A DNA stretch of 64,000 nt from an uncultured beta proteobacterium (GCA_903864505.1 CAIPGC010000103.1:97-64096); one strand, 5' to 3'; numbered from the stretch's first letter, positions 3,129-34,300 are shown. Notes: generated from the sequence alone by a model not told the origin. A program made the numbers and translations.

Positions 3129-3477
3129 TGGCCGCACGGTGGTGGTGCTGTTTGACGGCTTCACGCTGCCAACCGACCAGCCCGCCGCTATTGCCAACAG
3201 CATCGAAACCCTGGCCACCCCCTTGCCAGACTTGCTCAAAGAGCAGATCAAGGCCGCCAGCCCGCACGTGGCGCTGATTAGCAAAAACATGATCGACACC
3301 ATCCGCAAGAGCTACAGCATTGATGACGAGATGTTCTTTGCGCGTATTGGCGTGGGTGCCGCCACCGGCCTGTACACCCCGACCAGCGATGAGATGAACG
3401 AGCTGACGGTGTTTGGCGAGTTTGTAGAAAGCGTGCGCCAGTGGGGTCGCACCGAGCGGGCCAAGCTGGGCTTGTAA
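3013..3477 (+). CDS. Hypothetical protein overlapping the RT 3' end
   Basis: 154-aa ORF with ordinary protein composition; overlaps RT by 116 nt. Confidence 0.7.
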   Translation: MTSLIAYRKVIDSVTTHSLKLPTAQASQQAGQELATLPDGRTVVVLFDGFTLPTDQPAAIANSIETLATPLPDLLKEQIKAASPHVALISKNMIDTIRKSYSIDDEMFFARIGVGAATGLYTPTSDEMNELTVFGEFVESVRQWGRTERAKLGL

Positions 3478-17500: not shown

Positions 17501-18522
17501 CTGACGCCGGGTTCGATCGGAACGTGAAGATCAGAACCAAGTGGCTGTTTGGTGCACAAGGCAGGGGAATGACAATCGAGCAGGCGACCGAGCGCCTGAA
17601 GGAAGCTGGCTATCTGAAGCAAGGCGATGGCCAGAAAGAAGCGCTGGACCTGATTCGCAAGAGTGTCACCAACCCGCAGTACACGCCGGAAGGTTGGGAG
17701 AGGCTTGCAGAAGCCGAGCAGCAGACCCAATATGCGGATCACCTTGCGGCGCAGCAAGAGGCTGCACAAGACGACGATTACGATCCATTTGTGTCCGATG
17801 GCGCGACAAGTTTTGAGGCAGACGATCTTGATGTCTCTGGCCATGCGAAAGCAAGCAAAGAGATTCAACTGGAAGTTGCAGCGCTGCATGCACAAATGGA
17901 GTCGCTTGGACTTGACCCGGACGCCGTAAAGTACGACATTGCTACACAGTACCCGAATTACACCGATCAAGAGTTTTATGAGCATGTCAAATCAGAATCA
18001 CAAGCCGCCCTTGAAGCCCATTCCGCTGGACGCCAAGCCGAGCAAGGAGGCGATAGAAATACTGGCAAAGATGTACGCCAACCGAGCGACCCGGGAACGG
18101 GCCAACGAGAAGAAGGCCCAAGCCAAGTAACCAAGACCCCCTCAACCGAGGGGGTTTCTACTTCTGGCCCAGAGATTAATCGAAGTGCGTTTGACCGCGG
18201 CGATGCAGTAGACCGAGCATGGCGCGCATCCATCGGCGACCGGGTTGGGCGCTATGGGGTGGCTGTTGATTCCGATAACGGCCGCGTTGTGCTGGTCAAA
18301 GGCAATTCCACAGTTACCTTCAAGTTCGACAAGAACGATGCGGACGCCAGATCCAAAGCGGTAGCCGACGCCAAGACGTGGGCGCGCGAGAACAAAGAGA
18401 TTCCAGCCGAACAGGCAGCCCATCAGCCAGAGCCCGTTGCTGAAGAAAAACCAACCGCCCTCATTGAACTGCGCAAGCGCGAGAGCGTATTGAAGGCGCT
18501 TCGTAAATGTCTGGAGTCGTGA
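14557..18522 (+). CDS. Large ejection protein with polyvalent-protein InPase (inorganic-pyrophosphatase-like) domain
   Basis: PTQAQKEAGNYK...ISIENPRGSERSG...HYGYVRGTEGNDGDHVDTFIG...FDEHKVLLG at ~16380-16800; central hydrophobic helices. Confidence 0.8.
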   Translation: MAGLADIRVNPVAKAAPAATGVRPIVIPSEIDQYRDPAPADVPQSSLADFLPSFSSSTPEVVTTDVPSGPSLADSIGSAMNGVRDWATGARIDGEAKSGSVLETARPVPVDPLDQTGGAPFNADTVKAVTMQLAGMTPQERLKAGSIPGAYGTLARKVTARIDANAGSPVDRVIGGQSLEERTRFYLNQGAGPETAQNLAAQDIHGGYDARSLDQARPTSGDAQAMADGRAEGLPLQKYGVATRGVIGGVEGLKQGGLGVAAAALRLVGDDKTAEELEKSAFKSKSKTDAMNELTAMRRKAQEAGIVSSGPGIMDATYLEDMATGGVASAAQNIPGMAAGAATAIATKNPMLGGRVAMGLMTTQAFGSSFIDGRQRGYTPGHAASYAGAMAAFEFLGERYGLIPAAMNAFKAKAGQMPLAEIPAFMERFIGKAEEKGLFTKSAGSLIREQLGEQVGEQLTGAGQYLIEGSALGMDKPMSVRDFIGNAVDTSVQTLIATGLLQGGGRAGRAAIDSMKSGTVTKPAKEQATLATSPGLPETKQATTETTTAVPATESPIPATQKTETAPADAAVPAEDVLGSVDPDSPVRQDIEQAAHEAATSPLNDLPEPTQAQKEAGNYKVGRVKLHGLDISIENPRGSERSGTSPDGTEWSNTLAAHYGYVRGTEGNDGDHVDTFIGPNPDSEKVFVVDQVNEDGSFDEHKVLLGADSLQQADDLYHANYHAGWTGRGAITEMPLDQFKQWVKDGPKTEPVGKLPKPQQAPVQSGVSTSDTKQPVAPVQQAQPATKPVAEKPLSIGTTPNSSDPITVKDGVVHIGKYPAQNFETGDDVTVPEGATRAQIKQALKDAGAIGNHQKVFNVDEPQENVNGNQADQTKQAEPQQQEAPAAPVAVHYGRDNVPLSEGGKPFTTRKEAGDARRLQPHMRVVSVKGGHALAEKTAAQLAAEEKAAKRLRNAGASEANAPIPAHAFIADAGGLSKDAMSDAGFDRNVKIRTKWLFGAQGRGMTIEQATERLKEAGYLKQGDGQKEALDLIRKSVTNPQYTPEGWERLAEAEQQTQYADHLAAQQEAAQDDDYDPFVSDGATSFEADDLDVSGHAKASKEIQLEVAALHAQMESLGLDPDAVKYDIATQYPNYTDQEFYEHVKSESQAALEAHSAGRQAEQGGDRNTGKDVRQPSDPGTGQREEGPSQVTKTPSTEGVSTSGPEINRSAFDRGDAVDRAWRASIGDRVGRYGVAVDSDNGRVVLVKGNSTVTFKFDKNDADARSKAVADAKTWARENKEIPAEQAAHQPEPVAEEKPTALIELRKRESVLKALRKCLES

Positions 18523-18887
18523 TGGAAGCAAAGATGCAAGCCTTCGAAGACTTGATGGCAGAGGTAAGCGGAGCGCTGGCCGACATCGTTGTATCTCTTC
18601 AAGAAGGAAAGAGCGGTACCGACGAGATTTGCGCCACTCTGGTGGATCTGGCTCAAGTGATTGGAGCCAAGCCAAAGGATGGATCCATGGAGTCGATCGC
18701 TCAAGCCATCAAAGGCATCCGAATCGATTCACCAGTCACCGTAAACGTGAGCCCGACACCCATCACCGTCACTCCGACCGTTCAGATCCTTGAGCGCTCA
18801 GGTGACTACAAGCTGACCGTGAAGTACGACAACCACGACCGTATTACTGAAGCATTCATTTCACGAGTAACCAAGGAAACCCAATGA
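18522..18887 (+). CDS. Hypothetical protein (module gene 1)
   Basis: TGATG-coupled start; helical N-terminus, PVTVNVSPTPITV linker. Confidence 0.7.
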   Translation: MEAKMQAFEDLMAEVSGALADIVVSLQEGKSGTDEICATLVDLAQVIGAKPKDGSMESIAQAIKGIRIDSPVTVNVSPTPITVTPTVQILERSGDYKLTVKYDNHDRITEAFISRVTKETQ

Positions 18888-19108
18888 CCCAAATCACCCA
18901 AGGCTCACTCACCATGGTGGGCCTCAACACCAACACCCCCCAGGTATTCTGGAACGGCAGAGAAGTGCCCAACATCATCAGCATCCGAGTGGACTGGGAG
19001 CACGACGAAAACCGCGTGAAGATCAAAGTAACCGATATTGACCCCGCCTTGCAAGCAGAAATGCTCATGGGTGGCGTGTCGGTCAAGATGGAGAAACGCC
19101 ATGAGTGA
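18884..19108 (+). CDS. Hypothetical protein (module gene 2)
   Basis: 74 aa; ATGA-coupled. Confidence 0.65.
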   Translation: MTQITQGSLTMVGLNTNTPQVFWNGREVPNIISIRVDWEHDENRVKIKVTDIDPALQAEMLMGGVSVKMEKRHE

Positions 19109-19328
19109 ATTCGTAATGGTCATCCCCCCAAGCTGGACCCGGCTCGACCTTGAGGCCGCGTGCCTAATTCCAGGCGTCAGCATCCCCGCCATTGAAAACT
19201 GGATCGCCTCGCAGTATCTGGAAATCATGGCCACGGAGCTGATGAACGGCGGCGTTCTGCCAGTGGGCAGCATCATCCTTGAAGCGCAAATCTTCAACGG
19301 TGAAATGCTTTTGGTCCGACTGGGGTAA
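19101..19328 (+). CDS. Hypothetical protein (module gene 3)
   Basis: 75 aa starting MSEFVMVIPP; 8-nt overlap with the upstream gene. Confidence 0.6.
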   Translation: MSEFVMVIPPSWTRLDLEAACLIPGVSIPAIENWIASQYLEIMATELMNGGVLPVGSIILEAQIFNGEMLLVRLG

Positions 19329-19331
19329 TCG

Positions 19332-21968
19332 TTGACCACGTACACCGTAACGACCGGCACGGCAGGAGCGCCCACGGCCTATGCCAACCTGGGCATTCGG
19401 GCCACGGCAGATATTTTCAACGTCAACGGTGGATACCTGCGCGTGGACTGCGACTCGCGTTACGGCGTCAATGGTGCAGCTGCTGCGAGCTTTGGCAACA
19501 TCGTTCTGTCTGCTACCTTGGGTGGGACTATCGAATTTAATGCTACAAAAGTTCGCCTGATCCCATTCGCATCTGGCGCGGGCACCGTGCCTGCGGCGGA
19601 CACCGCTATCGGTACAGCAGGCGGCGCATCGGGCAAGCTGATCGGTGTTTACTCTGCCCTCAATGCAGCACCTACAGCAGCTGCAGCGGCCATGCCCGCA
19701 ACAGGCTACATCAAGGTGCGCGAATGGAACAGCACCACCTACGCCACCGCTACCGCGCTCACCGGCATATCAGCCACCACCTCCGCAGTAGACGGCCCTG
19801 GCTGGATCGAATGTGTGGGTGTGGACGCCAGCGGCGCCACCGTCAACCGCCTAAACAACTTCATCGTGCGTGGCGACTGGTACGACTTTCAGGGCGTCAC
19901 CACCACGGGCGCAAACACTGGCACCTACCAAATCCCCACCAACGGCTCGGGCGTCAATTACTTCCCTGGCGTATGGGTAGAGACCGCCGCAAGCTCTGGT
20001 GTGTACGAGTTCTACCCCTGCGCCGGATCGCTCGCGGCGCTGGTCGCCAACGTCGGTGTTGAAGCCACACGCGGTAAATTCTGCTGGATCGCAGCCGCCA
20101 CTGGCCTGCTGCGTTTCGGCAGCGACGGCACCAACGCCACAGGCGGATTCGTACCTGCAGCGGGTTTGAAGATTCGTATCCCCAACATCTTCTTTGTAAC
20201 CTGCGTTGCAGCCGCATCGGTCAACGTCATCCCAAACGCCACCCTCACCACCCGCTACAAATTCACCACGACGGGTGGCGGCGTGATAGATATTGACAAA
20301 TGCTGCTTTAACTGGGGCGCATTGTTCGCACAAGCATTCTCGGTGGCGTTGACCAATACCGCGATCATGTCCAACCTGACCGTGACTGAGTGCGCCCAGC
20401 CAGTTGCCTGGAGTCAGGTGGGTATCGGGCAAGAGGCCGCAGCCACCAACACCGCTTTGGTGCTGGGGCTCTGCTTTGCTGGCGGCACGGTCAGCAACTG
20501 CACTTTTACGCGGGCGGCGCTGGCCACTGCGGTATTCATTGCCACCCTGACAGACGTTACCGGCTTCACCTTCACCAGTTGCCGCATGCACACCATGGCC
20601 GTAAAGGCCAATGTGGGCGCAGGCTCATGGTGGCTCACGCGGTCGGTGAACTGCACCTGGACCAGCAACTACATCACAGGCGCAAAAGCCATGCTGATTG
20701 GTTGCAGCGGCCTGACCTGGACCAACACCCATTACAACGACGTATTGGGTGGAGTCACAGCCACCACGGCAGCTCAGAACAACTCGGTGTGGGAGCTTTC
20801 TGGCGCAGCATCGTCAAACCTCAAATTCGATGGTCTGGACTTCAATGGCATCGTCAACACCGCGCCCTACATATCGCTGTTGAGCATCGGCGTTGCCGGT
20901 TGTTCTGCGATCAAGCTGCGAAACATCGGCACCTACGCCGCACCACTCGCACTCGGCACGGCAACGGTATTCACGGGCGCTGTAATTCTGGGCCTTGCTG
21001 GTGGTGCGTGTTCTGACCTCAAGGTGCAGCGCGTCTACTGTGCCAATACCCGCTTGAACGGAATCTACTTTGGATCTTCCACGGTGCCTGACAACTCATC
21101 GTCCAAGTGGACGTTTGAGAATGTCTTCACAGACTACGCCGACAACGCCGACCTGGGTGTGATCCTGCAAATGAAATACAAGGGTTGTGGAGGCGTGCCT
21201 GCACTGGCTGCGTCTGCCTCGATCTACGGCACCCACTTTATGGACTTCTTCACCAGCACCACGGCTGGGCGGATTGCCATCCTGATGAACGAGTCCAACG
21301 CCAACACTACGGCACAGGTCACGCTCACGGGAGGCGCTGCGTTCACATCAGCAGGTGGGCTGTATATGCCTGTGATTGGGCAGACAGTTACGTTCGAGAC
21401 ACCCGAGTACATCATTGGGCATACCGGGTTCACTAACAGCGCAGCCATCATGGCGGGCGGTACGGCGACCAACTACACCTATGGGTTCCAAATCGACAAG
21501 AACGATGGTGCAGGCTGGAGTACGCTTACCTCTGGCTCGACTGCCACAACACTCGCAACTGCACTCAATGCGCTGACCGGAATCAGTGCAGTCAACGGCT
21601 TCAAGCTGCGTATCAAGATCACCACCGGCACTACCAACGCCACGGCGATCACATCGTTCTACATGCTCACCACCAGCACCACGACGACGCAGGCGTACCA
21701 GTACCCACTGGAGACATACACGGTCACCTTCACCGGGCTGCCAACGGGGAGTGATGTGGTGGTGCTCACCGCAGGCACCTCCACCGTGCTCGACATCAAA
21801 GACGCGCTCGCATCCACCAGCTACGGCTACACGTACTCAGGCGCGCAGACGGTGGACGTGGGCTTCATCAACCCAGGCTACGTGCCTTTTTACATTCGCA
21901 ACCTGTCACTCACCACGGCAGACTCCACCATCCCAGTCAGCCTAACCGTTGACCGCAATTACCAGTAG
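19332..21968 (+). CDS. 878-aa beta-helix-like structural/adhesin protein (module gene 4)
   Basis: T/A/G/N-rich with repeated xTFTxC / xTWTxN rungs typical of parallel beta-helices. Confidence 0.65.
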   Translation: MTTYTVTTGTAGAPTAYANLGIRATADIFNVNGGYLRVDCDSRYGVNGAAAASFGNIVLSATLGGTIEFNATKVRLIPFASGAGTVPAADTAIGTAGGASGKLIGVYSALNAAPTAAAAAMPATGYIKVREWNSTTYATATALTGISATTSAVDGPGWIECVGVDASGATVNRLNNFIVRGDWYDFQGVTTTGANTGTYQIPTNGSGVNYFPGVWVETAASSGVYEFYPCAGSLAALVANVGVEATRGKFCWIAAATGLLRFGSDGTNATGGFVPAAGLKIRIPNIFFVTCVAAASVNVIPNATLTTRYKFTTTGGGVIDIDKCCFNWGALFAQAFSVALTNTAIMSNLTVTECAQPVAWSQVGIGQEAAATNTALVLGLCFAGGTVSNCTFTRAALATAVFIATLTDVTGFTFTSCRMHTMAVKANVGAGSWWLTRSVNCTWTSNYITGAKAMLIGCSGLTWTNTHYNDVLGGVTATTAAQNNSVWELSGAASSNLKFDGLDFNGIVNTAPYISLLSIGVAGCSAIKLRNIGTYAAPLALGTATVFTGAVILGLAGGACSDLKVQRVYCANTRLNGIYFGSSTVPDNSSSKWTFENVFTDYADNADLGVILQMKYKGCGGVPALAASASIYGTHFMDFFTSTTAGRIAILMNESNANTTAQVTLTGGAAFTSAGGLYMPVIGQTVTFETPEYIIGHTGFTNSAAIMAGGTATNYTYGFQIDKNDGAGWSTLTSGSTATTLATALNALTGISAVNGFKLRIKITTGTTNATAITSFYMLTTSTTTTQAYQYPLETYTVTFTGLPTGSDVVVLTAGTSTVLDIKDALASTSYGYTYSGAQTVDVGFINPGYVPFYIRNLSLTTADSTIPVSLTVDRNYQ

Positions 21969-21979
21969 GACTAACCACC

Positions 21980-23368
21980 ATGGCAAAAATCACCAGCAAA
22001 GCAGGTCTTGTAGTCGGCACCAACCTCACCATTGACGAGCCAGGCCGCATCATCACATTGAATGTCGGCGGGTCGCTTATCGCCAAAGACGGCGTAACCC
22101 TCCAGGCGCTCTACTCCAAGCTAGTCGATTTGTGGGCCACCAGCACCTACCAAGACAGCCCATTCCCCATGTACGCAATCGATGCATTGTCTGGCCAGTT
22201 CCAGATCGGCACCGATGGCAGCACCTACAGCGGCTGGAAGTTCAGCGATGTGGACAGCGATGCTACCCGCAACATGCTGCGTGACGGCGGCTGGTCCGAG
22301 TGGTCCAGCGCGGGCGTCAAACTGCAAGAATACGCAGGCTTCATCGGTCTGGGCTCCATCACCCCAGCCACCACCGTGCAGCCCTACTACCACCTGGGCG
22401 CAACCGACGCGCCTATCAACTTCCCCTTCACTGACCAGTTCAACGTAGGCGTGCGCGTCTATGGCGATGCCAGCCACGGCAGTCTCGACAAACGCACCTA
22501 CGCCAAAGCCTTTGTGCGCGAGTATGGCAAGAAGTTCAAATCCTCCATCCTGGCAGACACAGGCGCCACCGCCACGGGCGCCAACAAAGTCAACTTCCTT
22601 GTCTCCAATGAAGACGACCTCAAAATCACCACCCTGCTGGGCTCTGTTGCAGCCACGGGCGACTCTGCCATGGCAGGCGCACCCTACAGCGGCATCACAG
22701 TGGCGTACTACACCGCCAACCAAAGCCGCACCATCAACAGCGTAGCGTGCAACTTCAAAACCATCATCGCTGGCAACGGCGCTACCCTTGAGCAAATCTA
22801 CGCCAAGATTCAATACCTGCTGCGCCAGGGAACCGACATCAACACCGGCGGTACCGCAGGCAGCAAGATCGGCAAGATTCAGTCCGACTTGCTCACCTTT
22901 GTTGGCGACACCCTGGTCACCAGCCAAAGCGTGTTTATCGACAACATCCTGGGCACCGACTCCAATCGCATCGAGTTTTACGACGACTCCAACACCAAGC
23001 GCACCAACCCCTACACCGCAGCGGGCACCATGTCATTCAACTCGGTGCTGGTGGGCGCAGGCTCCAGCTACCGTCTCATGTACTCCGCCCCTGCAGGCGC
23101 AGGCAACGACTATGGCGAGGCCGGTGCCATCACCGTCAAAGACTCCACCAACGCAGACATCACCGGCACCATCAGCGCAGCCAGCATCGGGTTTGACTTT
23201 GATTACGACAACAGCACCGCTGGTGGCACCGCGGGCACAGACAAGGCGGTAACCCTCATTGGCATTCGCCCCGGCTCTGGCAAGTTCGCCATGGCCACCG
23301 GCACCTTATCGCGCTCCAAGGGCATCAGCTTGTCGCTAGTCGCTGAGCAGGACCGCGTTTACGCATAA
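21980..23368 (+). CDS. 462-aa putative virion structural protein (module gene 5)
   Basis: DGVTLQALYSKL...FPM..I...QF...GW motif, recalled from phage structural proteins but not searched; RBS AGGA. Confidence 0.65.
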   Translation: MAKITSKAGLVVGTNLTIDEPGRIITLNVGGSLIAKDGVTLQALYSKLVDLWATSTYQDSPFPMYAIDALSGQFQIGTDGSTYSGWKFSDVDSDATRNMLRDGGWSEWSSAGVKLQEYAGFIGLGSITPATTVQPYYHLGATDAPINFPFTDQFNVGVRVYGDASHGSLDKRTYAKAFVREYGKKFKSSILADTGATATGANKVNFLVSNEDDLKITTLLGSVAATGDSAMAGAPYSGITVAYYTANQSRTINSVACNFKTIIAGNGATLEQIYAKIQYLLRQGTDINTGGTAGSKIGKIQSDLLTFVGDTLVTSQSVFIDNILGTDSNRIEFYDDSNTKRTNPYTAAGTMSFNSVLVGAGSSYRLMYSAPAGAGNDYGEAGAITVKDSTNADITGTISAASIGFDFDYDNSTAGGTAGTDKAVTLIGIRPGSGKFAMATGTLSRSKGISLSLVAEQDRVYA

Positions 23369-23371
23369 GGC

Positions 23372-23935
23372 TTGCCCGTGCCCATCACCTTCGATGCCGC
23401 TGCCAAGCGCATCATTCTCGACTCCGCCAGCGTCACCGCCACCGAGCTATACAGCCGCTCGGCAGACTGGCTCGCCACGTCAGACAACGCAAAGTATGGC
23501 GCCGTCTTTCGCCAGGTGGGCGGCGACGACCTGGGCGGCGGCCTATCCATCCCGCCTTACTTTTTCTTGCAAGGCGCATGGCGCGTGCGCCCCATGGAGT
23601 CTGCGCACAACCTCACCATCACCGGCAATTTATTCGTTGAGGGCGGCGGCGTGCCCGTGGTGTCCACGGTTGGCACCTACCAGGTCAACGTCAACTACAC
23701 CGTGCCCGTGCAGGCGCAAGGCATCAGCACATCGGGCAGCACAGGGCCGACGGCGGCGGATATTGCGGCAGCCGTGCGCGCCAGCATTGCCACGGAACTT
23801 GCCCAGATCACCAAGGTTTCCAAGATCCACGGCGTTGGTGTCGACCTGGTTGTCACGCCAACCAGTAGAACGGCCGGCGACTTGCTGCAAACCATCACCA
23901 CGACGAGCAATTCCACGACGGTATCGGCGGCATGA
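23372..23935 (+). CDS. 187-aa putative virion protein (module gene 6)
   Basis: ITFD....RIIL...ELYS..DW...VGGDDLGGG..IP.YFFL...WRVRP motif. Confidence 0.65.
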   Translation: MPVPITFDAAAKRIILDSASVTATELYSRSADWLATSDNAKYGAVFRQVGGDDLGGGLSIPPYFFLQGAWRVRPMESAHNLTITGNLFVEGGGVPVVSTVGTYQVNVNYTVPVQAQGISTSGSTGPTAADIAAAVRASIATELAQITKVSKIHGVGVDLVVTPTSRTAGDLLQTITTTSNSTTVSAA

Positions 23936-24132
23936 ACCCGCTTGTGCTTGCAGTCCAAGGCCTAGACTTTGGATTCGCGGCCATTGCCGTACTCGGTTTC
24001 ATTGCCTACGTCGCACAAAACACCGATCTGAACGGACCGGACGACGAAGAGCCCGACCGAATCCAAACACAAAACAACGCATTGCTGCAGATCATTGCAG
24101 CATTCGTAGCATCAGGAGCACTCGATGGGTAG
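23932..24132 (+). CDS. 66-aa hypothetical protein (module gene 7)
   Basis: ATGA-coupled; overlaps the start of the giant ORF. Confidence 0.6.
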   Translation: MNPLVLAVQGLDFGFAAIAVLGFIAYVAQNTDLNGPDDEEPDRIQTQNNALLQIIAAFVASGALDG

Positions 24133-27100
24133 CCTTACAGCTTGCTTGAAAAAGGCCGGAACAAGCCTGCGCGCAGAAGACAAGTCGGCCATCTTGGCGC
24201 TGTCTCGCCAGTACCGCTCAGAAGGGTTGAGCCCGAACGACGCAGCGATGAAGGCGATCGACACGCAACTCTCTGCCGTTGGGAAAATGATCGAGCAGGA
24301 GCAGGCACCCAAAAAAGTGGATCTGTTTGGCGAAGCTCCGAATGCATCGCAACAGGCCGCCGAAGACTTGCGCCAGAAGCAAAAGAAGAAGGAGCAAGCG
24401 CAGCGTGACAGGGCGCCGACAGCCAACGACTTTGATCTTGGCATGGTGGACCAGAAGACCGGAGACGAAGTAGCGCCTGGTCAAGCCGAGATAGCCGTGA
24501 ATGAGGATGAAGCCAAGGCCAAAGCCGACCTGATGAATGCGCTGGCGGACCTTGGAAGTCTGCTATCGGCACCAGGGCGCATGAACATTGCTCCAGAGCA
24601 GGAGCAGAAGCTGCTTCCCATCCTGACAAGGTTGTTCGATGCAGCGTTCCGCCTTGGGTACACCAAGTTCAAGGACGCGGCGAAGTTTGCTCTGGATCAG
24701 ATCAAGGCAGCACTGGGTCAGGAAACTGCAAACTCCATCGACCTGAATCACCTTCAAGGTGCGTACATCGCTATGTCTGGAGGGAAGACTGGCGCCGACA
24801 ACATTCGCACGGTCAGCACCATCGAGAGCAAATCAGAGGTTGAAAACCACACGGCGCAAACCGATAATCAACGCAAGGAGCAACTGAATGTACCAAGTGC
24901 CAACGCCAGTGTGGAACGACATAGCCCGCAGCCAGCCACTGAGCCAGCCGTGGGCCAAGCTGTTTCGGATGAACTACGAGCAACTGGTGGAGAACCTTCC
25001 CAAGCTGGTGGACGAACCGATAGAGGCGCTGGGAGCGGACAACTCGACGGTGTTGGCTTATCGTCTGGTGGCGCCGCTACTGCAAGAGAACGAGGCGATC
25101 AGCGCGTACATCGAAGAGACGGAGAACTTGAGCTTGCGAGCATCACTTCCGGAGATCAATTCGGTGAACGAGGCAGTGATGTTGGCATCCGAGGAATACC
25201 GCCTGAACCAATCTCAACAAAACAAGTTAGAGAAACTGCTGAATCGTTTGATGACCGAATAATCAAAGGCAGGGAGCAGAAGGCTGCGGCATCCATCAAG
25301 CCCATTGATGGCGACCTTCAGAACATTCGCGACACCCTCCCGCAACTTCTACCAGCACAACAGGACGACGTTCACAAGGCAGAGACGCGCTTTGCCAAGC
25401 CCAATGGCTTTGGCATGCTGTTTACCAACGGGACCGGAACAGGAAAGACTTTCAGCGGGCTTGGCATCATCAAGCGCTTCGAACTGAAGGGCAAGAAGAA
25501 CGCCATCATTCTGGCGCCTGATGACAAGATAGCTGCAGACTGGATCAAGGCCGGAAAGCTGCTGGGCCTGGACATCACCAAGCTGGCAGACACCAAGGAC
25601 TCCGGAAAAGGCATCGTCATCACGACCTATGCCAACTTCGGAGCCAACGACAAGACGGCATCGCGGCAATGGGATCTGGTTGTTGCCGACGAGGCGCACT
25701 CGCTTATGCAGGAAGCGCATGGGACTCCAACCGGGTACCTGCACAACCTCAGAGCCATTACCTACCATCCGGATGGCGTGCACACACGCCACAGCATGCT
25801 GCACCGCGAAGAGATCGAGCGCAGCGCCTTCCTGCACAGGGAGATCAAGGCGAACAACAAGATCATGAGCAACGACGACACCATGGATGCCATGGTTTCA
25901 TCGCTGCGCAGTGAGAATGAAAAGCTGGAAGCAGAGGTATCCAAGATCGACGCCAAGTTGCGCGCGGATCTGGACGCCTTGAAAGACGAGGTGCACAACC
26001 GCCAAAGCACGCGCCCGCGCCTGGTGGCATTGTCTGCAACCCCATTCGCCTACGAGAAGACGATTGACTGGGCCAATGGCTACCTGTTTGAGTACAACGA
26101 TGGCCAGCCTTCGGAAGAGCGCGAATTCAGAGGGTACAACTCCGGGTCGAACCGTGATCGGTACTTCATGCAGCACTTTGGCTACACGATGAGGTACAAC
26201 AAGCTCACCGAGCCCGATGGCAGCAAGGTGGACCGCGGGTTACTGCAGAGAAACTGGAACGCCAACCTCAAGAAGGCGGGATCTTTGTCCGGCCGCATGT
26301 TGGACGTAGTTCCTGACTACGACCGCAGGTTTGTAACGGTCGACTCTGCCATTGGCCATCGAATCGACGAAGCCCTTGAGTGGATCTCCAAGCAGCGCCA
26401 GGACGCACCCAAGGGAGACGAAGGTTTCTCAATGCTCAGTGAGGTGATCAACGACAAGTTCAAATACTTGCAAAAGCGTTACTTGCTGGAAGCGATCAAG
26501 GCGACCGAGGTGATTCCGATCGTCAAGCAGCACCTTGCACTCAATCGCAAAGTGGTGGTGTTCCACGACTACAAAAAGGGCGGAGGATTCAACCCGTTCT
26601 CCATCAGCATCGGTACGGCGAAGAGCGAAGAACCGAACCAGCAAGCACGCATCGAGAGCTTCAGAAAAGCTGTGACCGCCTTCAACACCGAGTTCAAAGA
26701 CTTGGTTGAAGCGCCACTCGGAGACATGGATTCACCCATCGAAGTGTTTGCGCGCGAACTGCCTCAGACCATGTTCATCAATGGGGATGAGAAAAAGAGC
26801 GACTTGCTCCAGCGATACGAGAAGTTTCAGGACGACGCCAGCGGCCCCCAAGTGATGCTGGTTCAATCGGCCAAGAACAAAGGCTGGAGCGGGCACGACA
26901 CCACCGGGAAACATCAGCGTGTCTTGATCAACCTGGGGCAACCCACGGCGCCCACGCTGGCGATCCAGCAGGAAGGCCGGATCTACCGCACCGGGCAGGC
27001 ATCAGACGCGATCATGCGCTACCTGAACACCGGAACCAATTGGGAGCGCTGGACATTCGCATCCACCATTGCCGGCCGCGCGAGCACCGCGGAGAACCTT

Positions 27101-30100
27101 GGCATGGGCGAGATGGCCAGGGCACTGAAGGACTCGTTCATTCAATCGTTTGATGAATCAGACGCCTACCCACCAGGCCATGAAGGCGAAGGCAAAGGCG
27201 GAAAAGAGCGCGACAAGGCGGCAAACGACGCTTTGACCGAGTACGACCGCGCCAAAACCTACTACTGGGCTACCCAGAAAAAGAACAGCAAGACCAAAGC
27301 CCAAGAGGGTGCGGACTACTTCGCAACCCCTGAGCCGGTGGGCTTGAAGATGGTCGAATGGTTGGATGCCAGGCCCGAGGAAGACACTCTTGAACCAAGC
27401 GCAGGACATGGCGCGATCTCCCGCTGGCTGCCGGATGTGACAAAGCGCACCGTGGTGGAGCCAAGCCTAGCCCTACGGTCCCGCCTTGCGTTGGTGATGA
27501 ACCCCAATGAGGACCGCATCATTGCCGGCACCTTTGAGGAACTGGGCGTCAACAACAAGTACGACGGCATTGTGATGAACCCGCCGTTCGGATCTGGCGG
27601 AAAGACGGCTATTGACCATCTGGCCAAGGCGGCAACGCACTTGCGTGACGGCGGCCGCATTGTTGCGCTGATCCCCACCGGGCCAGCGGCTGACAAGAAG
27701 TTCGAGAAGTGGTTCTACGAGGAATCAGAGCGCAAGGCTGCGCCTTTGTATGTGGACCCCAACCATGGGCCAATCTACAAAGGCGACACGCTGACACTGA
27801 CGGGATTCGGAACGCTCAAGAAGATTGTTGTCGACAAGGTTGATGGATCTGGCGCGGCGAAGTATGTGCGCGATGCAAACACACCTCCCAATGGCGCGAT
27901 CAACATCACCGCAATCAACAAGGTTGATCCTACCGGCAAGCGCACCGAGCAAGTAAAGATGGCCGAAGGCTTGTCCCTGGTGGCCGACATCAAACTACCG
28001 CAAGTGACGTTCGAGCGCGCGGGCACAGGCGTTGCGACTCGCATTGTGGTGATCGAGAAGTCAAACGAATGGAACACGGGCGGCGTCTACAACCGGGACT
28101 TTACCGGCATCACGACCGTTGCTGATCTGTTTGATTCCTTGGAGCACATGGCATTGCCAGACAGAGCAAAGAAGGAAGCCGCTTCAGAGGTGAAGGCGGA
28201 ACCCTCAAAACCTGAACCAAAACCGGAAGCGCCGAGCGTAAAGCTGGGCGACATGGTGACGCTCATGGGCAAGAAGTACGAGGTAACCACGTACACGACC
28301 AATGCCGGTAAAGAATTGAAGGGAGCATGGGTCCCCACCAAGGCGGTTGCCTTGTACAACGGCGCCCGGTCGACGTTCCAAGTCAAGGGCAAGGGTTTCT
28401 TTGTCCGTGAGCGCGACTTCCCGAAGGATGCCGACAGCATTGATTCGCCAATGATGGCGCGCGGCGGACAGACTTCAGAACCGTTCTACAGCGCACTCTC
28501 AAAAGGTATCGAAGGCATCAAATCAAACTCTGCACCTGGGCTCGGGTGGCTGGACGCGATCAAAGGACTGGTGAACAAGGGCCAAGTGAAAGCCGATGAG
28601 GTTGAATGGTCTGGCGTTGGAGACTGGCTGAAGCTGCAAACCGGGAAAGTCTCCAAGGCGCAAGTGCTGGAGTATCTGGCTGCCAACGGGGTTCAGATCA
28701 AGGAGGTGACGCTTGGCGAGGTAGATGAGGGCCTGCTAGAGGCGTTTCTCGGAGATGAGGCAGGAGAGGGGTTTACAAGGGAAGAGGCAATTGAGGTCCT
28801 AAAAGGTGAAGAGGGGGCAACTCCTACTAAATACGACCGCTACCAACTCCCAGGCGGGACCAACTACCGCGAAGTGTTGTTGACGCTGCCAGTGCAGGGA
28901 CCGAAGTTTGACCCTTCAAAAGTCGTGGTCAAACGTATCCGCCAATCTGTTACTCAAGGCAGCGTGCAAATTTATTACGATGGCGAAAAGATTGGTAGGC
29001 AGTATGCCGACGAAGGTACGCCAAAAACCAACTACATGCGCCCGGAGTCGGAGTGGGTTGACACAGCGAAACGCCTATTTGAATCCGGAGAGACATTGCC
29101 TGATGGCCGCGTCGTGTCAAAGGGGAAAACAGGCGCATACAAATCCTCCCATTGGGACCAGCCCAACGTGCTCGCCCACATCCGCGTCAATGACCGTACC
29201 GACGCTGAAGGTAAGCGCGTGCTCTTCGTGGAAGAGATCCAGAGCGACTGGGGTCAGGATGGTAAGAAAACAGGGTTCAGGCAGAAGTTAGATGTTGCTG
29301 GCATAGAGTCACGCACACAAGCCATTACAGCCCGTCTGCGCGAGATTGCAAAGACAGTCGAAGGAAACCCTGCGCTTGAAGAGGAATGGAATCGCCTGTC
29401 CGATGAAAAGTCAAAACTGACAGACTCACTGGTTCGCAGCAACGATGGAGCGCCAGTAGCCCCATTCGTTCAGAAGACCGAAGGCTGGCTCAACCTAGCC
29501 CTGAAGCGCATCATCAAGATCGCCGTGGACGAGGGCTACGACAAGGTGGCATTCATCAATGGCGACCAAAGCGCAGAGCGCTATGACCTTAGCAAACACA
29601 TCAAGGAATTCCGCTACGAGCCCATCAAAGGCACGGACAAGTACGAGATAGGCGCCGTTGACATCAATGGCCAGAACGTACTTGACGAGGACGAAGTAAC
29701 CCTTGCGCGCATCGAGGAACTTGTCGGAAAAGAGATTGCTTCGAAGGTTGAGCGCAAAGAAGGCGCCAAAGACAAGGACGGCTATCGCGACTGGCATTAC
29801 CTGCGCGGACTGGATCTGAAGGTGGGCGGCACTGGAATGAAAGCCTTCTACGACCAGATCGTTCCGAGCGTTGCCAAGGACGTGCTCAAGAAGGTTGGCG
29901 GCGGAGCGCTGGAGACGGTTCAGATTGGATCAAAAGAATCTGGCAAATGGGGCGTTTACGACGCTACCGATGAGGACAACCAGGGACTTATTGAATCGTT
30001 TCCCTCCAAAGCGCAAGCAGAGGAATTTGCAAAAGAGCAGGACGGAGGCGTTGAAGTTCGGCAAGTTCCAGAGTACGGCGCCCAAACAGGCTTCACCATC

Positions 30101-33100
30101 ACCCCGGCCATGCGAGACAAAGCGGCCAATGGGTTGCCAATGTTCAACCGTGGCCAAAACGACTTGCTCACGAACTACGACCGTGAAGAGGCGCTGAAGA
30201 AGCAGCAATCCGAAGCCGACGCACTCAAGCAAGAGAACAAGCCAGCGTCCAAGCCACGGCAGCCGGTCTACACGGCAGACCAGATTGACCTCTTCAACCC
30301 TCAGAGTTCGCTGTTTGCCAAAGGCTTGCAGATGGACGAAGAGGCATTCCGCAAGGCTTTTGGATCTTCTGGACCGGTGCAAATGACGGTCGACCAGGTG
30401 CAGCGCATTACGAACAGCCTGACGAAGGATTGGACGAACGGGCCAAAGATCGTTGTCGTCAACTCGACCGCAGACCTTCCCGTCAAGTCTCCAGCGGACG
30501 CCCGGGGTCTGTACTGGCGCGGCACGGTGTACTTGGTGGCCAGTGCACATGCCTCCACTGGGATGCTTGCAAGAACGCTGGCCCATGAATCAGTGGCCCA
30601 TTACGGGCTCAGGAAGATGCTTGGGGATGCCGGCTGGTACAAGCTGATGACCAATGTTCAATTGGCTCTGGCTTCTGGAAACAAACCTTTGAACGCGATT
30701 CGCGCGGAAGTGCGCAAAGCCTACGCCGACAAAGACGGTGTTTTCAGGCTTGGAAAGAACCAGGAAGCCGACGAAGTTGCGGCGCGCGCAGTGGAAAACG
30801 CGATTGATGCAGCAACTGGAGAATTCAGGCCCGGGTATTCATTCCTAAAAGAAGCCTATGCAAAGATTGCGCAATTCCTGCGTGACCATGGAATCCCGGT
30901 CAAGTTCACGAACCTCGAACTGCAGGGCATGCTGGTTGCATCGTCGAAGTGGCTGAAGGAAGGTAGTCCAACCCAAGTTGCAAATGGAGCCGCAGTCCCC
31001 GCCTACGCGCTTGGGGAGAAAACAAAATCCAATAATGTGTCTGGCGTACTCAGCGACCGAGAGTTGGCTGACCTTCACAGCAGGATCATGGCTACTCCAG
31101 AAATCGAGGTAACGACATCCGGCCTGCTTGCGGATGGTTCATACAAAGAACTGCGAAAGAATTCAGTTGAGTCCTACACTGGCCCGCAAGTTATCGTGAA
31201 CTACGAAACAGGGGAGAGCATAAAGATTGCCAAGAGCGGAATAGAGAACGCATTGCAGCATGGCATGAACCTAGAGAAGCGCGCTGTAGTCAGGGTTTTG
31301 GATAAATTGATCGAGAATGCTGCGCTTGTGGTGCGCGACACAAAAAACATGAAGCAGGGCGTAAAGTCGATCGAGACGTTCGCGTCGCGTGTGTCTGTAG
31401 ATGGGAAGCCCTATGTCGCGCGTATCGTTGTCCGAGAGCTTGCAGACGGCAGAAGGTTCTATGACCATGAACTTTCGAACCTAGAAAGCGAAAGGCTCGC
31501 TGGTAACTCCGGGGGATCGATCGAATCATTCTCCGACCGTCATTCTGAACCCCAGCCCACAGCAAGCCTTGGGCGAATTGTGCTGCAACAGGCATTGGAA
31601 GTCAACAACGGCACCTTCGCCCGCAGCGCACCCACCGGTGAACTTCGCCCGAGCACGGCGCCCCTGGACACCATCCTCCGCGTATTCGGCGGCAATCTGG
31701 CCGCGCGCATCACTTCGCCGGCTTATGGATGGTTGGCTCGCACGCTTGACGCAATCACTCCAGAAACCCTGAAAGCAGGCCTTGTGTCGGACTACGGACT
31801 CCGAAATGAGTACCTGGACCGCAAGCAGGAAATGAAGACGGCGCAGCGCCAGCACGCGCGCCACCTGGGTGATGTGATTGATGGCCTCCAGAACCTCGAC
31901 CGCCAGCAATCCCGCGTTGCGTACTTCTGGATGCAGGAGCACCCAAGCCACGAGGCAGAGGCCAAGCTGATGGAGCAACTGCCCCAAGAGAGCAGGGCGA
32001 CGCTGGAAGCACTGAAAGACCAGATCGACAAGCTGGGCCAGGAAGCCGTCAAACTTGGGTTGATCACCGCAGAAACCATAGACCGCAACCGATTTGCATA
32101 TTTGCATAGGTCCTACAAGCGCTACGAAATGGAAGACGGATCTTCGGTCAAGGGCGCCCGGTCACGCGCAATCAAGATCCTGGGAGACCAATTTAAAGGC
32201 CGCGGGCTCAGAGACGATGCCGACATGGCCAAGATCGCCGCGCTGGACTGGTACAAGCGCAAGACCCAAGAAGGCAAGGCTGATGTGAGCCTGAAAGGCA
32301 TCATGTTCCACCGGCTGGAGCGCCGGTCGACGCCGGATCTGTCAACGCCGGACATGATTGGCGACGCATCAAGAAAACTCGGGAAGCTGCGCGAAATCAA
32401 GTATTGGCCAGTGAGCGAGCCTATTCCCCTGCACTTGTCCGACTGGAGAAACGATGGCCAGTGGGAGGCCAGGTTCTTCGACAAGTCTGGCAAAGTGGGG
32501 ATGTGGCGCGACTTCACGCTGGAAGAGCGCACCGCCATGGGCGAGATTCAGGAAGTGCGATACGGCGTGGCAAAGACCATCATGCAGATGTCGCGCGACG
32601 TTGAAACGGCCAGGTTCCTCGACTGGATTGCAAGAAATGAGGCTGTCGGCCATGAATCCATGTTGCCGGAAGACGCTATTGCCTTGGAAAGCGCCAGCAC
32701 CAGCCTTGGGCGAGCCTACAAGACGAACGAATGGGTTCAGGTGCCCGCCAGTGCCATACCCGGTACTGCAGGGCTTAAACGCTTCGGGAACCTTGCCGGC
32801 CGCTGGGTGCCCGGGCCGGTGTGGAATGACCTACGGCAGATCGCGACCATCAACGACCAGGACGTTATTAGCAAGGTGTATGGCCCCATGCTCAGGGCTT
32901 GGAAGATCTCCAAGACTGCACTGAGCCCCGCCACGCACATGAACAACGTGATGGCGAACTTTGTGATGGCCGACGCCCACGACATCCAAGCCAAGCACAT
33001 GCTGACTGCGCTCAGGACGTACCGCAGCTACAAGACCAACGAAGTCGGAAAAGAACTGATGGATGCGTTTTTGGACAACGGTGGAGACGCCGGCATGTTC

Positions 33101-34300
33101 AACACGGAAGAGATCAAGAGCGAGATCTTCGAGCCATTGCTGAAACAGTTGGAAGACGATCTCAACTCGAACGCCAACAAGACGACCCGGTTGATGATGG
33201 CAACGCACGTAATTGGCTTGCTCAAAGCGAAGGAGTTCCGCCAAGCCTTTGCGATGATTGGGGAAACCAAGACAGCAAAACAGGCCGGAGTCCCATTCAA
33301 GAAGCTGATCAAGCTCTATGGCCAGGAAGACGAAATGTTCCGCCTTGCCGCCTTCATCAAGGCCCGCGAAGATGGATTGAGCGACCACGACGCCGGGAAG
33401 TTTGCCAGGGAGTCGTTCCTGAACTACGAGATCAACGCTCCATGGATTGCTGCTTTACGCAAATCGGCAATGCCATTCATTGCATTCACGTACCGTGCGG
33501 CGCCAATGATGGCAAAGGTGGCTTCCGAGCGCCCATGGAAACTCGCCAAGTGGATGATGGTGGCCGGCGCCTTGAATGCACTGGGCTACCTGATGTCAGG
33601 CGGTGACGAGGACAAAGAGCGCGCCTTCATGCCTGACGAGAAGAGCGGCCGGGTATGGGGGATCGTGCCGAAGTTGATCCGCATGCCGTGGAACGACACC
33701 AATAAGCAGCCGGTGTTTCTGGACATCCGGCGCTGGATACCGGTGGGCGATATGGTTGACACAGGCCAAAGCCACGCAGCGGTACCGGTGCCGCCGCCAT
33801 TGATGCCGGGTGGGCCTGTTGTGATCCTGGGCGAACTGATAGCCAACACATCACTTTTCACCGGCCAGAACATCACCAAGGCGACGGATACGCTTTCCGA
33901 GAAATGGGGTAAGGCAGTGGGGTACTTGTGGAAAGCGGCCATGCCAAACATGCTGGGACTTCCAGGAACGTATGCCTCCGATGCAGTGATGAACGCTGGA
34001 TCCGGTAAAACCGACACCTTTGGCCGGGAACAGTCTTTGCCCATGGCTGTAAGTTCATCCTTTGGCGTGAAGCTGGCAAGCTACCCGCAAGATGTGTTGA
34101 TCCAGAACGAAGCCCGGAAACTGTCAGCAGAAATCGGGGAGCTTCGCCGCGGATTGCGTAGCGACTCACGCCAGTTGGCCCGAAAAGGCATCGACCAGGA
34201 AGACATGGACAAGAAGACCGCCACAATGCAAGAAAAGATCAAAGAGCGCACCGACGAGTTCAACAAGAAAAAGAAGGCAGCAGGGATGGTGCAGGATTGA
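24125..34300 (+). CDS. Giant polyvalent DarB-like virion protein: SF2 helicase + N6-adenine methyltransferase + zincin + LPD-type domains
   Basis: Walker A NGTGTGKT (~25430), DEAH (25688), SATP, QQEGRIYR; MTase YFATP / LEPSAGHG / NPPF (27578); EEIQSD (~29230); HESVAH (30584). Confidence 0.88.
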   Translation: MGSLTACLKKAGTSLRAEDKSAILALSRQYRSEGLSPNDAAMKAIDTQLSAVGKMIEQEQAPKKVDLFGEAPNASQQAAEDLRQKQKKKEQAQRDRAPTANDFDLGMVDQKTGDEVAPGQAEIAVNEDEAKAKADLMNALADLGSLLSAPGRMNIAPEQEQKLLPILTRLFDAAFRLGYTKFKDAAKFALDQIKAALGQETANSIDLNHLQGAYIAMSGGKTGADNIRTVSTIESKSEVENHTAQTDNQRKEQLNVPSANASVERHSPQPATEPAVGQAVSDELRATGGEPSQAGGRTDRGAGSGQLDGVGLSSGGAATARERGDQRVHRRDGELELASITSGDQFGERGSDVGIRGIPPEPISTKQVRETAESFDDRIIKGREQKAAASIKPIDGDLQNIRDTLPQLLPAQQDDVHKAETRFAKPNGFGMLFTNGTGTGKTFSGLGIIKRFELKGKKNAIILAPDDKIAADWIKAGKLLGLDITKLADTKDSGKGIVITTYANFGANDKTASRQWDLVVADEAHSLMQEAHGTPTGYLHNLRAITYHPDGVHTRHSMLHREEIERSAFLHREIKANNKIMSNDDTMDAMVSSLRSENEKLEAEVSKIDAKLRADLDALKDEVHNRQSTRPRLVALSATPFAYEKTIDWANGYLFEYNDGQPSEEREFRGYNSGSNRDRYFMQHFGYTMRYNKLTEPDGSKVDRGLLQRNWNANLKKAGSLSGRMLDVVPDYDRRFVTVDSAIGHRIDEALEWISKQRQDAPKGDEGFSMLSEVINDKFKYLQKRYLLEAIKATEVIPIVKQHLALNRKVVVFHDYKKGGGFNPFSISIGTAKSEEPNQQARIESFRKAVTAFNTEFKDLVEAPLGDMDSPIEVFARELPQTMFINGDEKKSDLLQRYEKFQDDASGPQVMLVQSAKNKGWSGHDTTGKHQRVLINLGQPTAPTLAIQQEGRIYRTGQASDAIMRYLNTGTNWERWTFASTIAGRASTAENLGMGEMARALKDSFIQSFDESDAYPPGHEGEGKGGKERDKAANDALTEYDRAKTYYWATQKKNSKTKAQEGADYFATPEPVGLKMVEWLDARPEEDTLEPSAGHGAISRWLPDVTKRTVVEPSLALRSRLALVMNPNEDRIIAGTFEELGVNNKYDGIVMNPPFGSGGKTAIDHLAKAATHLRDGGRIVALIPTGPAADKKFEKWFYEESERKAAPLYVDPNHGPIYKGDTLTLTGFGTLKKIVVDKVDGSGAAKYVRDANTPPNGAINITAINKVDPTGKRTEQVKMAEGLSLVADIKLPQVTFERAGTGVATRIVVIEKSNEWNTGGVYNRDFTGITTVADLFDSLEHMALPDRAKKEAASEVKAEPSKPEPKPEAPSVKLGDMVTLMGKKYEVTTYTTNAGKELKGAWVPTKAVALYNGARSTFQVKGKGFFVRERDFPKDADSIDSPMMARGGQTSEPFYSALSKGIEGIKSNSAPGLGWLDAIKGLVNKGQVKADEVEWSGVGDWLKLQTGKVSKAQVLEYLAANGVQIKEVTLGEVDEGLLEAFLGDEAGEGFTREEAIEVLKGEEGATPTKYDRYQLPGGTNYREVLLTLPVQGPKFDPSKVVVKRIRQSVTQGSVQIYYDGEKIGRQYADEGTPKTNYMRPESEWVDTAKRLFESGETLPDGRVVSKGKTGAYKSSHWDQPNVLAHIRVNDRTDAEGKRVLFVEEIQSDWGQDGKKTGFRQKLDVAGIESRTQAITARLREIAKTVEGNPALEEEWNRLSDEKSKLTDSLVRSNDGAPVAPFVQKTEGWLNLALKRIIKIAVDEGYDKVAFINGDQSAERYDLSKHIKEFRYEPIKGTDKYEIGAVDINGQNVLDEDEVTLARIEELVGKEIASKVERKEGAKDKDGYRDWHYLRGLDLKVGGTGMKAFYDQIVPSVAKDVLKKVGGGALETVQIGSKESGKWGVYDATDEDNQGLIESFPSKAQAEEFAKEQDGGVEVRQVPEYGAQTGFTITPAMRDKAANGLPMFNRGQNDLLTNYDREEALKKQQSEADALKQENKPASKPRQPVYTADQIDLFNPQSSLFAKGLQMDEEAFRKAFGSSGPVQMTVDQVQRITNSLTKDWTNGPKIVVVNSTADLPVKSPADARGLYWRGTVYLVASAHASTGMLARTLAHESVAHYGLRKMLGDAGWYKLMTNVQLALASGNKPLNAIRAEVRKAYADKDGVFRLGKNQEADEVAARAVENAIDAATGEFRPGYSFLKEAYAKIAQFLRDHGIPVKFTNLELQGMLVASSKWLKEGSPTQVANGAAVPAYALGEKTKSNNVSGVLSDRELADLHSRIMATPEIEVTTSGLLADGSYKELRKNSVESYTGPQVIVNYETGESIKIAKSGIENALQHGMNLEKRAVVRVLDKLIENAALVVRDTKNMKQGVKSIETFASRVSVDGKPYVARIVVRELADGRRFYDHELSNLESERLAGNSGGSIESFSDRHSEPQPTASLGRIVLQQALEVNNGTFARSAPTGELRPSTAPLDTILRVFGGNLAARITSPAYGWLARTLDAITPETLKAGLVSDYGLRNEYLDRKQEMKTAQRQHARHLGDVIDGLQNLDRQQSRVAYFWMQEHPSHEAEAKLMEQLPQESRATLEALKDQIDKLGQEAVKLGLITAETIDRNRFAYLHRSYKRYEMEDGSSVKGARSRAIKILGDQFKGRGLRDDADMAKIAALDWYKRKTQEGKADVSLKGIMFHRLERRSTPDLSTPDMIGDASRKLGKLREIKYWPVSEPIPLHLSDWRNDGQWEARFFDKSGKVGMWRDFTLEERTAMGEIQEVRYGVAKTIMQMSRDVETARFLDWIARNEAVGHESMLPEDAIALESASTSLGRAYKTNEWVQVPASAIPGTAGLKRFGNLAGRWVPGPVWNDLRQIATINDQDVISKVYGPMLRAWKISKTALSPATHMNNVMANFVMADAHDIQAKHMLTALRTYRSYKTNEVGKELMDAFLDNGGDAGMFNTEEIKSEIFEPLLKQLEDDLNSNANKTTRLMMATHVIGLLKAKEFRQAFAMIGETKTAKQAGVPFKKLIKLYGQEDEMFRLAAFIKAREDGLSDHDAGKFARESFLNYEINAPWIAALRKSAMPFIAFTYRAAPMMAKVASERPWKLAKWMMVAGALNALGYLMSGGDEDKERAFMPDEKSGRVWGIVPKLIRMPWNDTNKQPVFLDIRRWIPVGDMVDTGQSHAAVPVPPPLMPGGPVVILGELIANTSLFTGQNITKATDTLSEKWGKAVGYLWKAAMPNMLGLPGTYASDAVMNAGSGKTDTFGREQSLPMAVSSSFGVKLASYPQDVLIQNEARKLSAEIGELRRGLRSDSRQLARKGIDQEDMDKKTATMQEKIKERTDEFNKKKKAAGMVQD

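Follow-up and report, generated by a model that had tools for sequence, protein, structure and literature searches.

What does a temperate phage gain from a single gene that takes up almost one-sixth of its genome? The question is raised by a 64,000-nucleotide stretch of DNA from an uncultured beta proteobacterium (GCA_903864505.1 CAIPGC010000103.1:97-64096; hereafter the window), in which one open reading frame (ORF) on the + strand, at 24125-34300, encodes a protein of 3,391 amino acids (aa). A first-pass annotation of this DNA had proposed a polyvalent protein that combines helicase, adenine methylase, metallopeptidase and further domains in a possibly new arrangement, and had likened it to the DarB protein of phage P1. 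Combinatorial architectures of this kind were named polyvalent proteins by Iyer et al. in 2017 (PMC5512222). The analysis presented here supports that class assignment: the giant is a phage-type polyvalent protein, in which variable cargo is carried on a constant C-terminal module, here called the chassis. We put the probability that it is a polyvalent virion protein made of a chassis and anti-restriction cargo at roughly 70%. The polyvalent concept is already known, and the giant adds little to it. Two of its sub-parts are worth follow-up, namely an unannotated domain with the motif EEIQSD and the structurally unmatched chassis.

The gene, its modules and their exchange

The giant ORF is real, because it is uninterrupted, is preceded by a ribosome-binding site (a Shine-Dalgarno AGGAG 6 nt 5' of its ATG start), lies in a complete genome and encodes a protein that is recorded identically in other assemblies (a cluster of four member sequences on eight contigs). 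The window covers almost the whole of a 64,274 bp contig, and the phage genome can be taken as complete, at ~64,133 bp, since the two contig ends repeat 141 bp. The ORF makes up 15.9% of this genome, in agreement with the 16% initially estimated. Upstream and on the same strand are genes for the large terminase, portal, major capsid protein, a diversity-generating retroelement (DGR) reverse transcriptase, a 985-aa internal virion protein, tail proteins, and a protein of 1,321 aa in which Pfam recognises an InPase domain. The giant gene closes this late/virion operon and is followed directly by a tyrosine integrase gene on the opposite strand. The same order of giant gene and opposite-strand integrase is found at the loci of three relatives, P0003, P0016 and P0029 (L120, L122 and L125, respectively).

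All of the parts originally described in the protein are present (Table 1). It joins several unrelated effector domains, that is, a superfamily 2 (SF2) ATPase, an NPPF methyltransferase (MTase), an HExxxH module, LPD3 and the EEIQSD module. LPD3, which had been placed at ~31190-31480, is recognised by Pfam at nearly the same position, and it belongs to the LPD series of domains specific to polyvalent proteins. Pfam also identifies ResIII at aa 408-530 (37.6 bits against a cutoff of 22.5) and MTS at aa 1077-1196, and the C-lobe of the ATPase (aa 899-1009) gives a sub-threshold match to Helicase_C_4, which is of Strawberry-notch type. Helicase motif VI reads QQEGRIYRTGQ948. The helicase and methylase motifs are all intact, and each is kept in at least 94% of 121 homologues, which answers the concern that the catalytic residues might prove degenerate.

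Among 5.8 billion proteins searched, 413 homologues were found, which are 1,900-5,900 aa long and carry shuffled modules. Module counts were taken from the best 120 of these. Common to them is a cassette spanning aa ~130-1450, in which a helical domain and a disordered linker lead into the SF2 ATPase and the MTase, with a small domain behind these. The remaining modules are distributed unevenly: the zincin-like module occurs in ~50 of the 120, the chassis type of the window protein in ~30, the EEIQSD module in ~20 and LPD3 in 5-7. None has the full set, as the suggestion of a new combination would lead one to expect. A combination not seen before is, however, what would be anticipated of a family that constantly shuffles its modules. 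The closest relative, P0003, is collinear with the window protein at 61% identity and lacks exactly aa 1447-2013, the EEIQSD module.

Exchange extends to the boundaries of the gene itself. The InPase-bearing protein aligns with P0003 twice, by its first 54 residues (MAGLADIR...) to residues 1-56 and by its InPase region to residues 497-838, and its residues 119-760 match residues 114-768 of another relative, P0046. The window giant aligns to P0003 and P0046 only from about residue 1,100-1,450 of those proteins. Because the two proteins match successive parts of the relatives' single giants, an ancestral polyprotein is carried here as two genes, separated by seven ORFs over 5.6 kb (18522-24132). 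Judged by these alignments, what forms the N-terminal part of one giant in relatives has become detached here as the InPase protein, a detail that is new. Its PHROG matches include virion structural and minor head protein families.

General database searches were otherwise uninformative. The whole protein found no match among PDB sequences with phmmer and nothing meaningful in NCBIfam, and a Pfam scan of seven fragments at E<=10 gave none for the N-terminus, the MTase insert, the small domain, the EEIQSD module, the zincin-like module, the linker or the chassis. A nucleotide search of cultured phages with the window also gave no match.

Table 1. Modules of the giant protein, its detached sister protein and free-standing relatives of one module. 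Positions are those of the window unless a locus is named.
Feature	Residues	Position	Strand	Remarks
Whole ORF (P0001)	3,391 aa	24125..34300	+	Final + strand gene of the late/virion operon
Conserved helical domain	~130-230	24512..24814	+	Always ahead of linker and helicase in relatives
Low-complexity linker	231-400	24815..25324	+	Gly/Ser/Arg/Glu-rich, probably disordered
SF2 ATPase/translocase	~405-1040	25337..27244	+	Walker A GTGKT438, DEAH522, SAT637, motif VI 948-958
NPPF amino-methyltransferase	~1060-1345	27302..28159	+	TP1068, EPSAGHG1090, NPPF1152
Small conserved domain	~1373-1432	28241..28420	+	After the MTase; in ~77-90 of 120 relatives
EEIQSD module	1447-2013	28463..30163	+	Motifs LPGGxNYRExLLTLP, EExQSDW
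Zincin-like HExxxH module	~2086-2260	30380..30904	+	HESVAH, candidate third ligand E2217
LPD3	2340-2446	31142..31462	+	Pfam E 6.8e-17, 62.1 bits (cutoff 27)
C-terminal chassis	~2513-3391 (~880 aa)	31661..34297	+	Always C-terminal in relatives
InPase-bearing protein	1,321 aa	14557..18522	+	Matches the N-terminal part of relatives' single giants
Free-standing EEIQSD gene		L211:8001-10043		After a small ferritin/rubrerythrin-like gene, before an ART-PolyVal giant; another polyvalent giant upstream
Free-standing EEIQSD gene		L212:630-2558		After a small ferritin/rubrerythrin-like gene, before an ART-PolyVal giant
Free-standing EEIQSD gene		L213:8001-10109		Just upstream of SU10-like phage packaging genes, after two small methyltransferase genes

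The C-terminal chassis

The region first described as C-terminal and helical is a large module, mostly helical with a beta-rich insert, for which AlphaFold2 gives a confident model (66 sequences, pLDDT 84.2, pTM 0.83). Used as an alignment query, it was found on 204 IMG/VR contigs, mostly of 53-70 kb, of which 80 loci were examined. At all 80, the chassis core match lies in a very long ORF and stops 83-128 aa short of the end of that ORF, and the ~2,800 aa preceding it usually have nothing in common with the window protein. The chassis was also found at 53 prophage loci in beta-, alpha- and gamma-proteobacterial genomes. The window protein agrees with this, since its chassis forms the very C-terminal end and its gene is the final one of the virion operon. 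Such searches required an alignment as query; scans of viral contigs with single sequences of the chassis and the zincin/LPD3 regions found nothing. Two of the frames recovered, at L044:4475-6598 (708 aa) and L074:7334-11041 (1,236 aa), hold little beyond the chassis; such frames could encode the chassis alone, or could be what a frameshift has left of a giant.

The fold of the chassis is familiar among predicted viral structures and unmatched among solved ones. Foldseek found no analogue in the PDB (best E 0.21, TM-score <0.1). Against the predicted viral structures of BFVD, there were 59 matches at E<=1e-3, which are the last fragments of giant proteins. The names of those giants reflect varied cargo, including zeta toxin, ART-PolyVal, RelA/SpoT, lytic transglycosylase and DNA methylase. 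Among the matches are LPD38-labelled proteins (E 5e-8 and 5e-7) and proteins of Ralstonia phage Alix (E 1e-6), E. coli phage PTXU04 and Cellulophaga phage phi19:3, with figures for the LPD38-labelled fragments and Alix of probability 1.00 and TM-scores of 0.35-0.47 over ~1,000 columns. By this comparison, the chassis has the same fold as the LPD38-type C-terminal region of ~900 aa.

Profile comparison is less clear-cut. With hhalign, the chassis alignment (A2) and an alignment of Bcep22-type C-termini (A7) share 322 collinear columns, with weak statistics (E 0.0017). The landmarks that line up are FRLAA..A..G with LRLaLY..R..G, NKSxFTG with NRNSFGS, and a hydrophobic helix followed by GGDEDxER with one followed by GMDDDKDRW. 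A set of mixed giant C-termini of LPD39, LPD38 and LPD37 types (A6), to which the PLxRFG/LPD39 end of the Skulduggery giant belongs, aligned over only 66 columns, at 69% probability. On the basis of these structural models and alignments, we regard the chassis as belonging, in divergent form, to the LPD38 type of C-terminal module. It contains two moderately hydrophobic stretches (aa 3137-3160 and 3218-3244); an interpretation as a transmembrane tail was dropped, as the hydropathy is too low.

The cargo domains

Of all the parts of the protein, the EEIQSD module is the most interesting. The motif first noticed, EEIQSD, lies within EEIQSDW at aa 1703-1709 (nt 29231-29251), of which E, Q, S and D stay unchanged across 28 homologues of the module. 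Two further patterns, S.HW..N...H.R and GGxGMxxFYD, are also invariant, so that the fixed residues include acidic residues, His and Arg. Because such a pattern is typical of enzymes, the uncharacterised module is probably an enzyme. The AlphaFold2 model of the module is mostly at pLDDT 80-95. No relative of known structure or family was found: a profile search of the PDB with the EEIQSD alignment returned nothing, Pfam gave no consistent match across all 28 members, and the best match of a model of the EEIQSD, zincin-like and LPD3 regions to the PDB with Foldseek had an E of 0.34. Foldseek matches of this model to AceK, MutL-N and GNAT were scattered, with probabilities of at most 0.23, and are not trusted. 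A literature search for 'EEIQSD' returned zero papers.

The module is nevertheless abundant. A profile search of 1.84 billion cluster representatives (at 50% identity) recovered 14,540 proteins at E<=0.001, of which 9,416 were at E<=1e-30. A module that occurs in more than 14,500 clusters and has no match in Pfam, among PDB sequences or among PDB folds is thus new in detail. The best 150 listed matches are mostly proteins of 1,000-7,000 aa, some with several copies, and the partner domains include ART-PolyVal, MuF_C, LPD38, LPD23 and KfrB. Free-standing genes of 500-800 aa also exist. Of three that were examined (640-700 aa; Table 1), two lie between pieces of split polyvalent proteins and one beside the packaging genes of an SU10-like phage. 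Among cultured phages, a clear copy was found only in the jumbo cyanophage Dfl-JY45, the sole other record being an uncultured Caudoviricetes sp.

The MTase shares two traits with the DarB family, whose MTase is of the EcoKI/TaqI-like gamma class: a TP-capped helix and an NPP(Y/F) motif. Its matches in PHROG and PADLOC are DNA methylases, and DNA adenine is its probable target, as far as the sequence can indicate. An insert of ~80 aa (aa 1204-1282) interrupts the domain.

The zincin-like module carries the HExxxH motif reported in the first-pass annotation; it reads HESVAH, at aa 2154-2159 (nt 30584-30601), of which the second His and the Gly that follows are invariant. Downstream, E2217 is nearly invariant in homologues of the module. 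A second AlphaFold2 model, with pLDDT of 80-90 in this region, predicts a helix, three strands, the HExxxH helix and further helices, one of which bears E2217. This predicted order fits the zincin core that Iyer et al. described for polyvalent proteins, in which three strands are followed by a HExx(x)H helix and a Glu helix (PMC5512222). The HEXXXH variant of the polyvalent zincin peptidase was itself described in 2017 (PMC5512222). Some relatives in the module alignment (A5; rows L005, L053, L055 and L042) have an HExxH motif shifted by one residue, or a degenerate one (AHHEIRH); motifs in either register thus occur within one module family, alongside copies that are probably inactive. In the second model, the LPD3 part rests on a shallow alignment and is uninterpretable (pLDDT 30-60), which leaves the 'BECR-like' label first given to this domain as the only listed feature without support.

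Delivery, function and alternative readings

Comparison with named systems shows which parts of the giant have precedents. The helicase-then-MTase cassette has its counterpart in gp28 of the Pseudomonas phage Skulduggery, a 3,695-aa protein annotated as 'DarB-like antirestriction' and grouped with Serratia phage Parlo and the 'PLxRFG protein' of Klebsiella phage ZX1. Identity is 43% over aa 251-1203 and 47% over aa 1283-1349, the preceding helical domain and linker are shared, and gp28 likewise follows the virion structural genes, in a genome of ~63 kb. It differs in having an N-terminal SLT domain, an HExxH peptidase and a C-terminus of LPD39/PLxRFG type, and in lacking the MTase insert, the EEIQSD module, LPD3 and the window type of chassis. 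NCBIfam and Pfam detect neither a PLxRFG motif nor LPD39 in the window protein.

The other end of the protein is better matched by the Lessievirus podophage giants Bcep22 gp75 and its homologue JC1 gp69 (4,515-4,602 aa). Bcep22 gp75 combines SLT, MTase, SNF2, LPD3, HExxH and LPD38 modules; its LPD3 aligns with that of the window protein at E 9e-4, and its HExxH module with the zincin-like module at E 3e-5. The genes for these giants, like that of the window, close the virion module or nearly so, the giant gene of Bcep22-like podophages being its final one on the + strand; two short reverse-strand ORFs and lysis genes follow in Bcep22 and JC1, and the integrase in the window. Bcep22 gp75 differs in its DarB order (MTase then SNF2), its SLT domain and its HExxH motif. 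Pfam sees LPD38 in Bcep22 and not in the window protein, and pairwise identity between the chassis regions is at noise level. In JC1, virions purified on CsCl yielded 51 unique peptides of gp69 (PMC9144972).

The analogy with P1 DarB (2,255 aa), drawn at the outset, holds for the MTase and fails for the remainder. DarB is a virion-carried protein with an MTase and an SF2 ATPase, of a family that shields entering DNA in cis against type I restriction. Homology is seen between the MTase cores, which align over 96 aa at 34% identity (E 6e-8) and have the TP helix cap and an NPPF-type motif in common. The helicases are of different SF2 types and do not align, that of DarB being SNF2-type (Pfam SNF2-rel_dom and Helicase_C, from aa ~849, after an MTase at aa ~145-290). 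The domain order is also reversed, LPD36-MTase-SNF2 in DarB and ATPase then MTase in the window protein, and the chassis, the zincin module, LPD3 and the EEIQSD module are all missing from DarB. Because only the MTase aligns and the order is reversed, the giant is not a DarB orthologue; by analogy, it may be DarB-like in function.

A precedent for delivery is provided by the virion RNA polymerase (vRNAP) of N4, gp50 (3,500 aa). This multi-domain giant of 383 kDa is stored in the head of a podophage and leaves it through the short tail (PMC13434306). Its C-terminal region is needed for encapsidation and it has a zincin-like module; the window protein, unlike gp50, has no RNA polymerase domain. 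Comparison of the chassis with the gp50 C-terminus by hhalign was not significant (E 0.23). In that alignment, the chassis stretch FLNYEINAPW...PFIAFTYRA...P falls opposite eefinYDrlp...wFynFkiR...P, which lies close to the C-terminal end of the N4 vRNAP (L214:10527-13676, - strand), within the region of N4 that encapsidation requires.

Taken with the position of the gene, the likeness of the chassis to LPD38-labelled ends and the proven virion location of LPD38-bearing Bcep22-like giants suggest that the protein is most likely packaged in the virion and injected with the DNA. The chassis would bring the protein into the head and then out through the tail together with the DNA. The SF2 ATPase, which would depend on double-stranded DNA, and the NPPF MTase would most likely move along the incoming genome and methylate it in cis, and this methylation would protect it from restriction. 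The EEIQSD module (~570 aa) would be cargo, probably an enzyme, while the HExxxH zincin-like peptidase would most likely cleave the polyprotein into functional parts, whether ahead of delivery, in its course or afterwards. LPD3 would be a further cargo domain, with no role assigned.

Several results weigh against this account. P1 is a myovirus, in which packaging of DarB is low-copy and depends on DarA and Hdf, and the window phage has no visible counterpart of that dependence, for which no search was made. For this phage, packaging, injection, DNA methylation, the anti-restriction effect and self-processing are inferred. The Pfam LPD38 model (PF18857) misses both the whole protein and its C-terminal fragment, even at E<=10, the hhalign probability between the chassis and Bcep22-type ends is only 15%, and the chassis has no classical transmembrane helix (maximum Kyte-Doolittle average 1.26). 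The closest relatives of the MTase by solved structure and Pfam are small rRNA m2G methylases (RsmC and MJ0882). As for the peptidase, no zincin was matched by Pfam, by Foldseek or by a PDB profile search, which returned designed helical repeats only, and alignment with the peptidase region of N4 gp50 was weak (27 columns, E 0.005, probability 7%). Since no database method confirmed the fold, the zincin assignment rests on the motif and the predicted topology.

Of the other readings, the least improbable gives the protein a part in genome entry. The chassis would sit at the inner membrane, the tethered SF2 translocase would pull the genome in and the methylase would mark the DNA as it passed, anti-restriction being a by-product. 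An intact translocase joined to a conserved and moderately hydrophobic C-terminal module would suit this role, as would a final place in an operon with internal virion and ejection proteins, and both T7 and N4 internalise DNA by enzymes bound at the entry site (PMC13434306). However, most of the 80 examined chassis-bearing giants have no helicase/MTase cassette in their last ~3,600 aa, so that entry cannot generally depend on the cassette, and the protein has no classical transmembrane segment. We consider an entry motor unlikely. A somewhat smaller chance is given to an unpackaged, late cytoplasmic enzyme complex that would methylate or process progeny DNA or host targets, with operon position reflecting timing alone. 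The silence of the Pfam LPD38 model is compatible with this, and many phages encode soluble orphan methylases. Yet an always-terminal module of ~880 aa, common to giants with unrelated cargo, would be hard to explain in a soluble enzyme; the giants of Bcep22-like phages at the same operon position are found in virions; and the InPase sister protein has the virion structural and minor head matches noted above.

A prophage defence or exclusion system that would protect the lysogen with a helicase and a methylase, in the manner of BREX, DISARM or MADS, is highly improbable. It is suggested by weak PADLOC matches to mad2 (4.5e-10), PbeA and type II MTase models, but these are limited to the generic MTase and helicase cores, and the reading was dropped on that ground. 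Moreover, the gene belongs to the late structural operon, which is on the lytic strand, and lies outside the lysogeny/moron region, no partner defence genes adjoin it, and its relatives are polyvalent virion proteins. A packaged polyvalent protein with anti-restriction cargo thus remains the preferred reading. As a separate observation on the window, the DGR-type reverse transcriptase (PHROG 1423, E 6e-101; 2061-3128, + strand) adjoins tail-fibre-like genes.

A bolder proposal, which we hold only tentatively and with the odds somewhat against it, is that the EEIQSD module is a new enzyme family delivered at infection, perhaps for anti-defence or host takeover, and that the chassis is a general vehicle for delivering proteins through a short tail, whatever the cargo. 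The locus is informative in three respects. It defines an extremely common domain that is without annotation anywhere, and it provides a confident model of a constant C-terminal module that is a candidate cargo-delivery chassis. It also offers a natural experiment on module boundaries, since P0003 lacks exactly the EEIQSD module and the N-terminal part of the giant is a separate gene here. More broadly, polyvalent virion proteins probably amount to a large and mostly unexplored reserve of enzymes that counter host defences within seconds of the start of infection.

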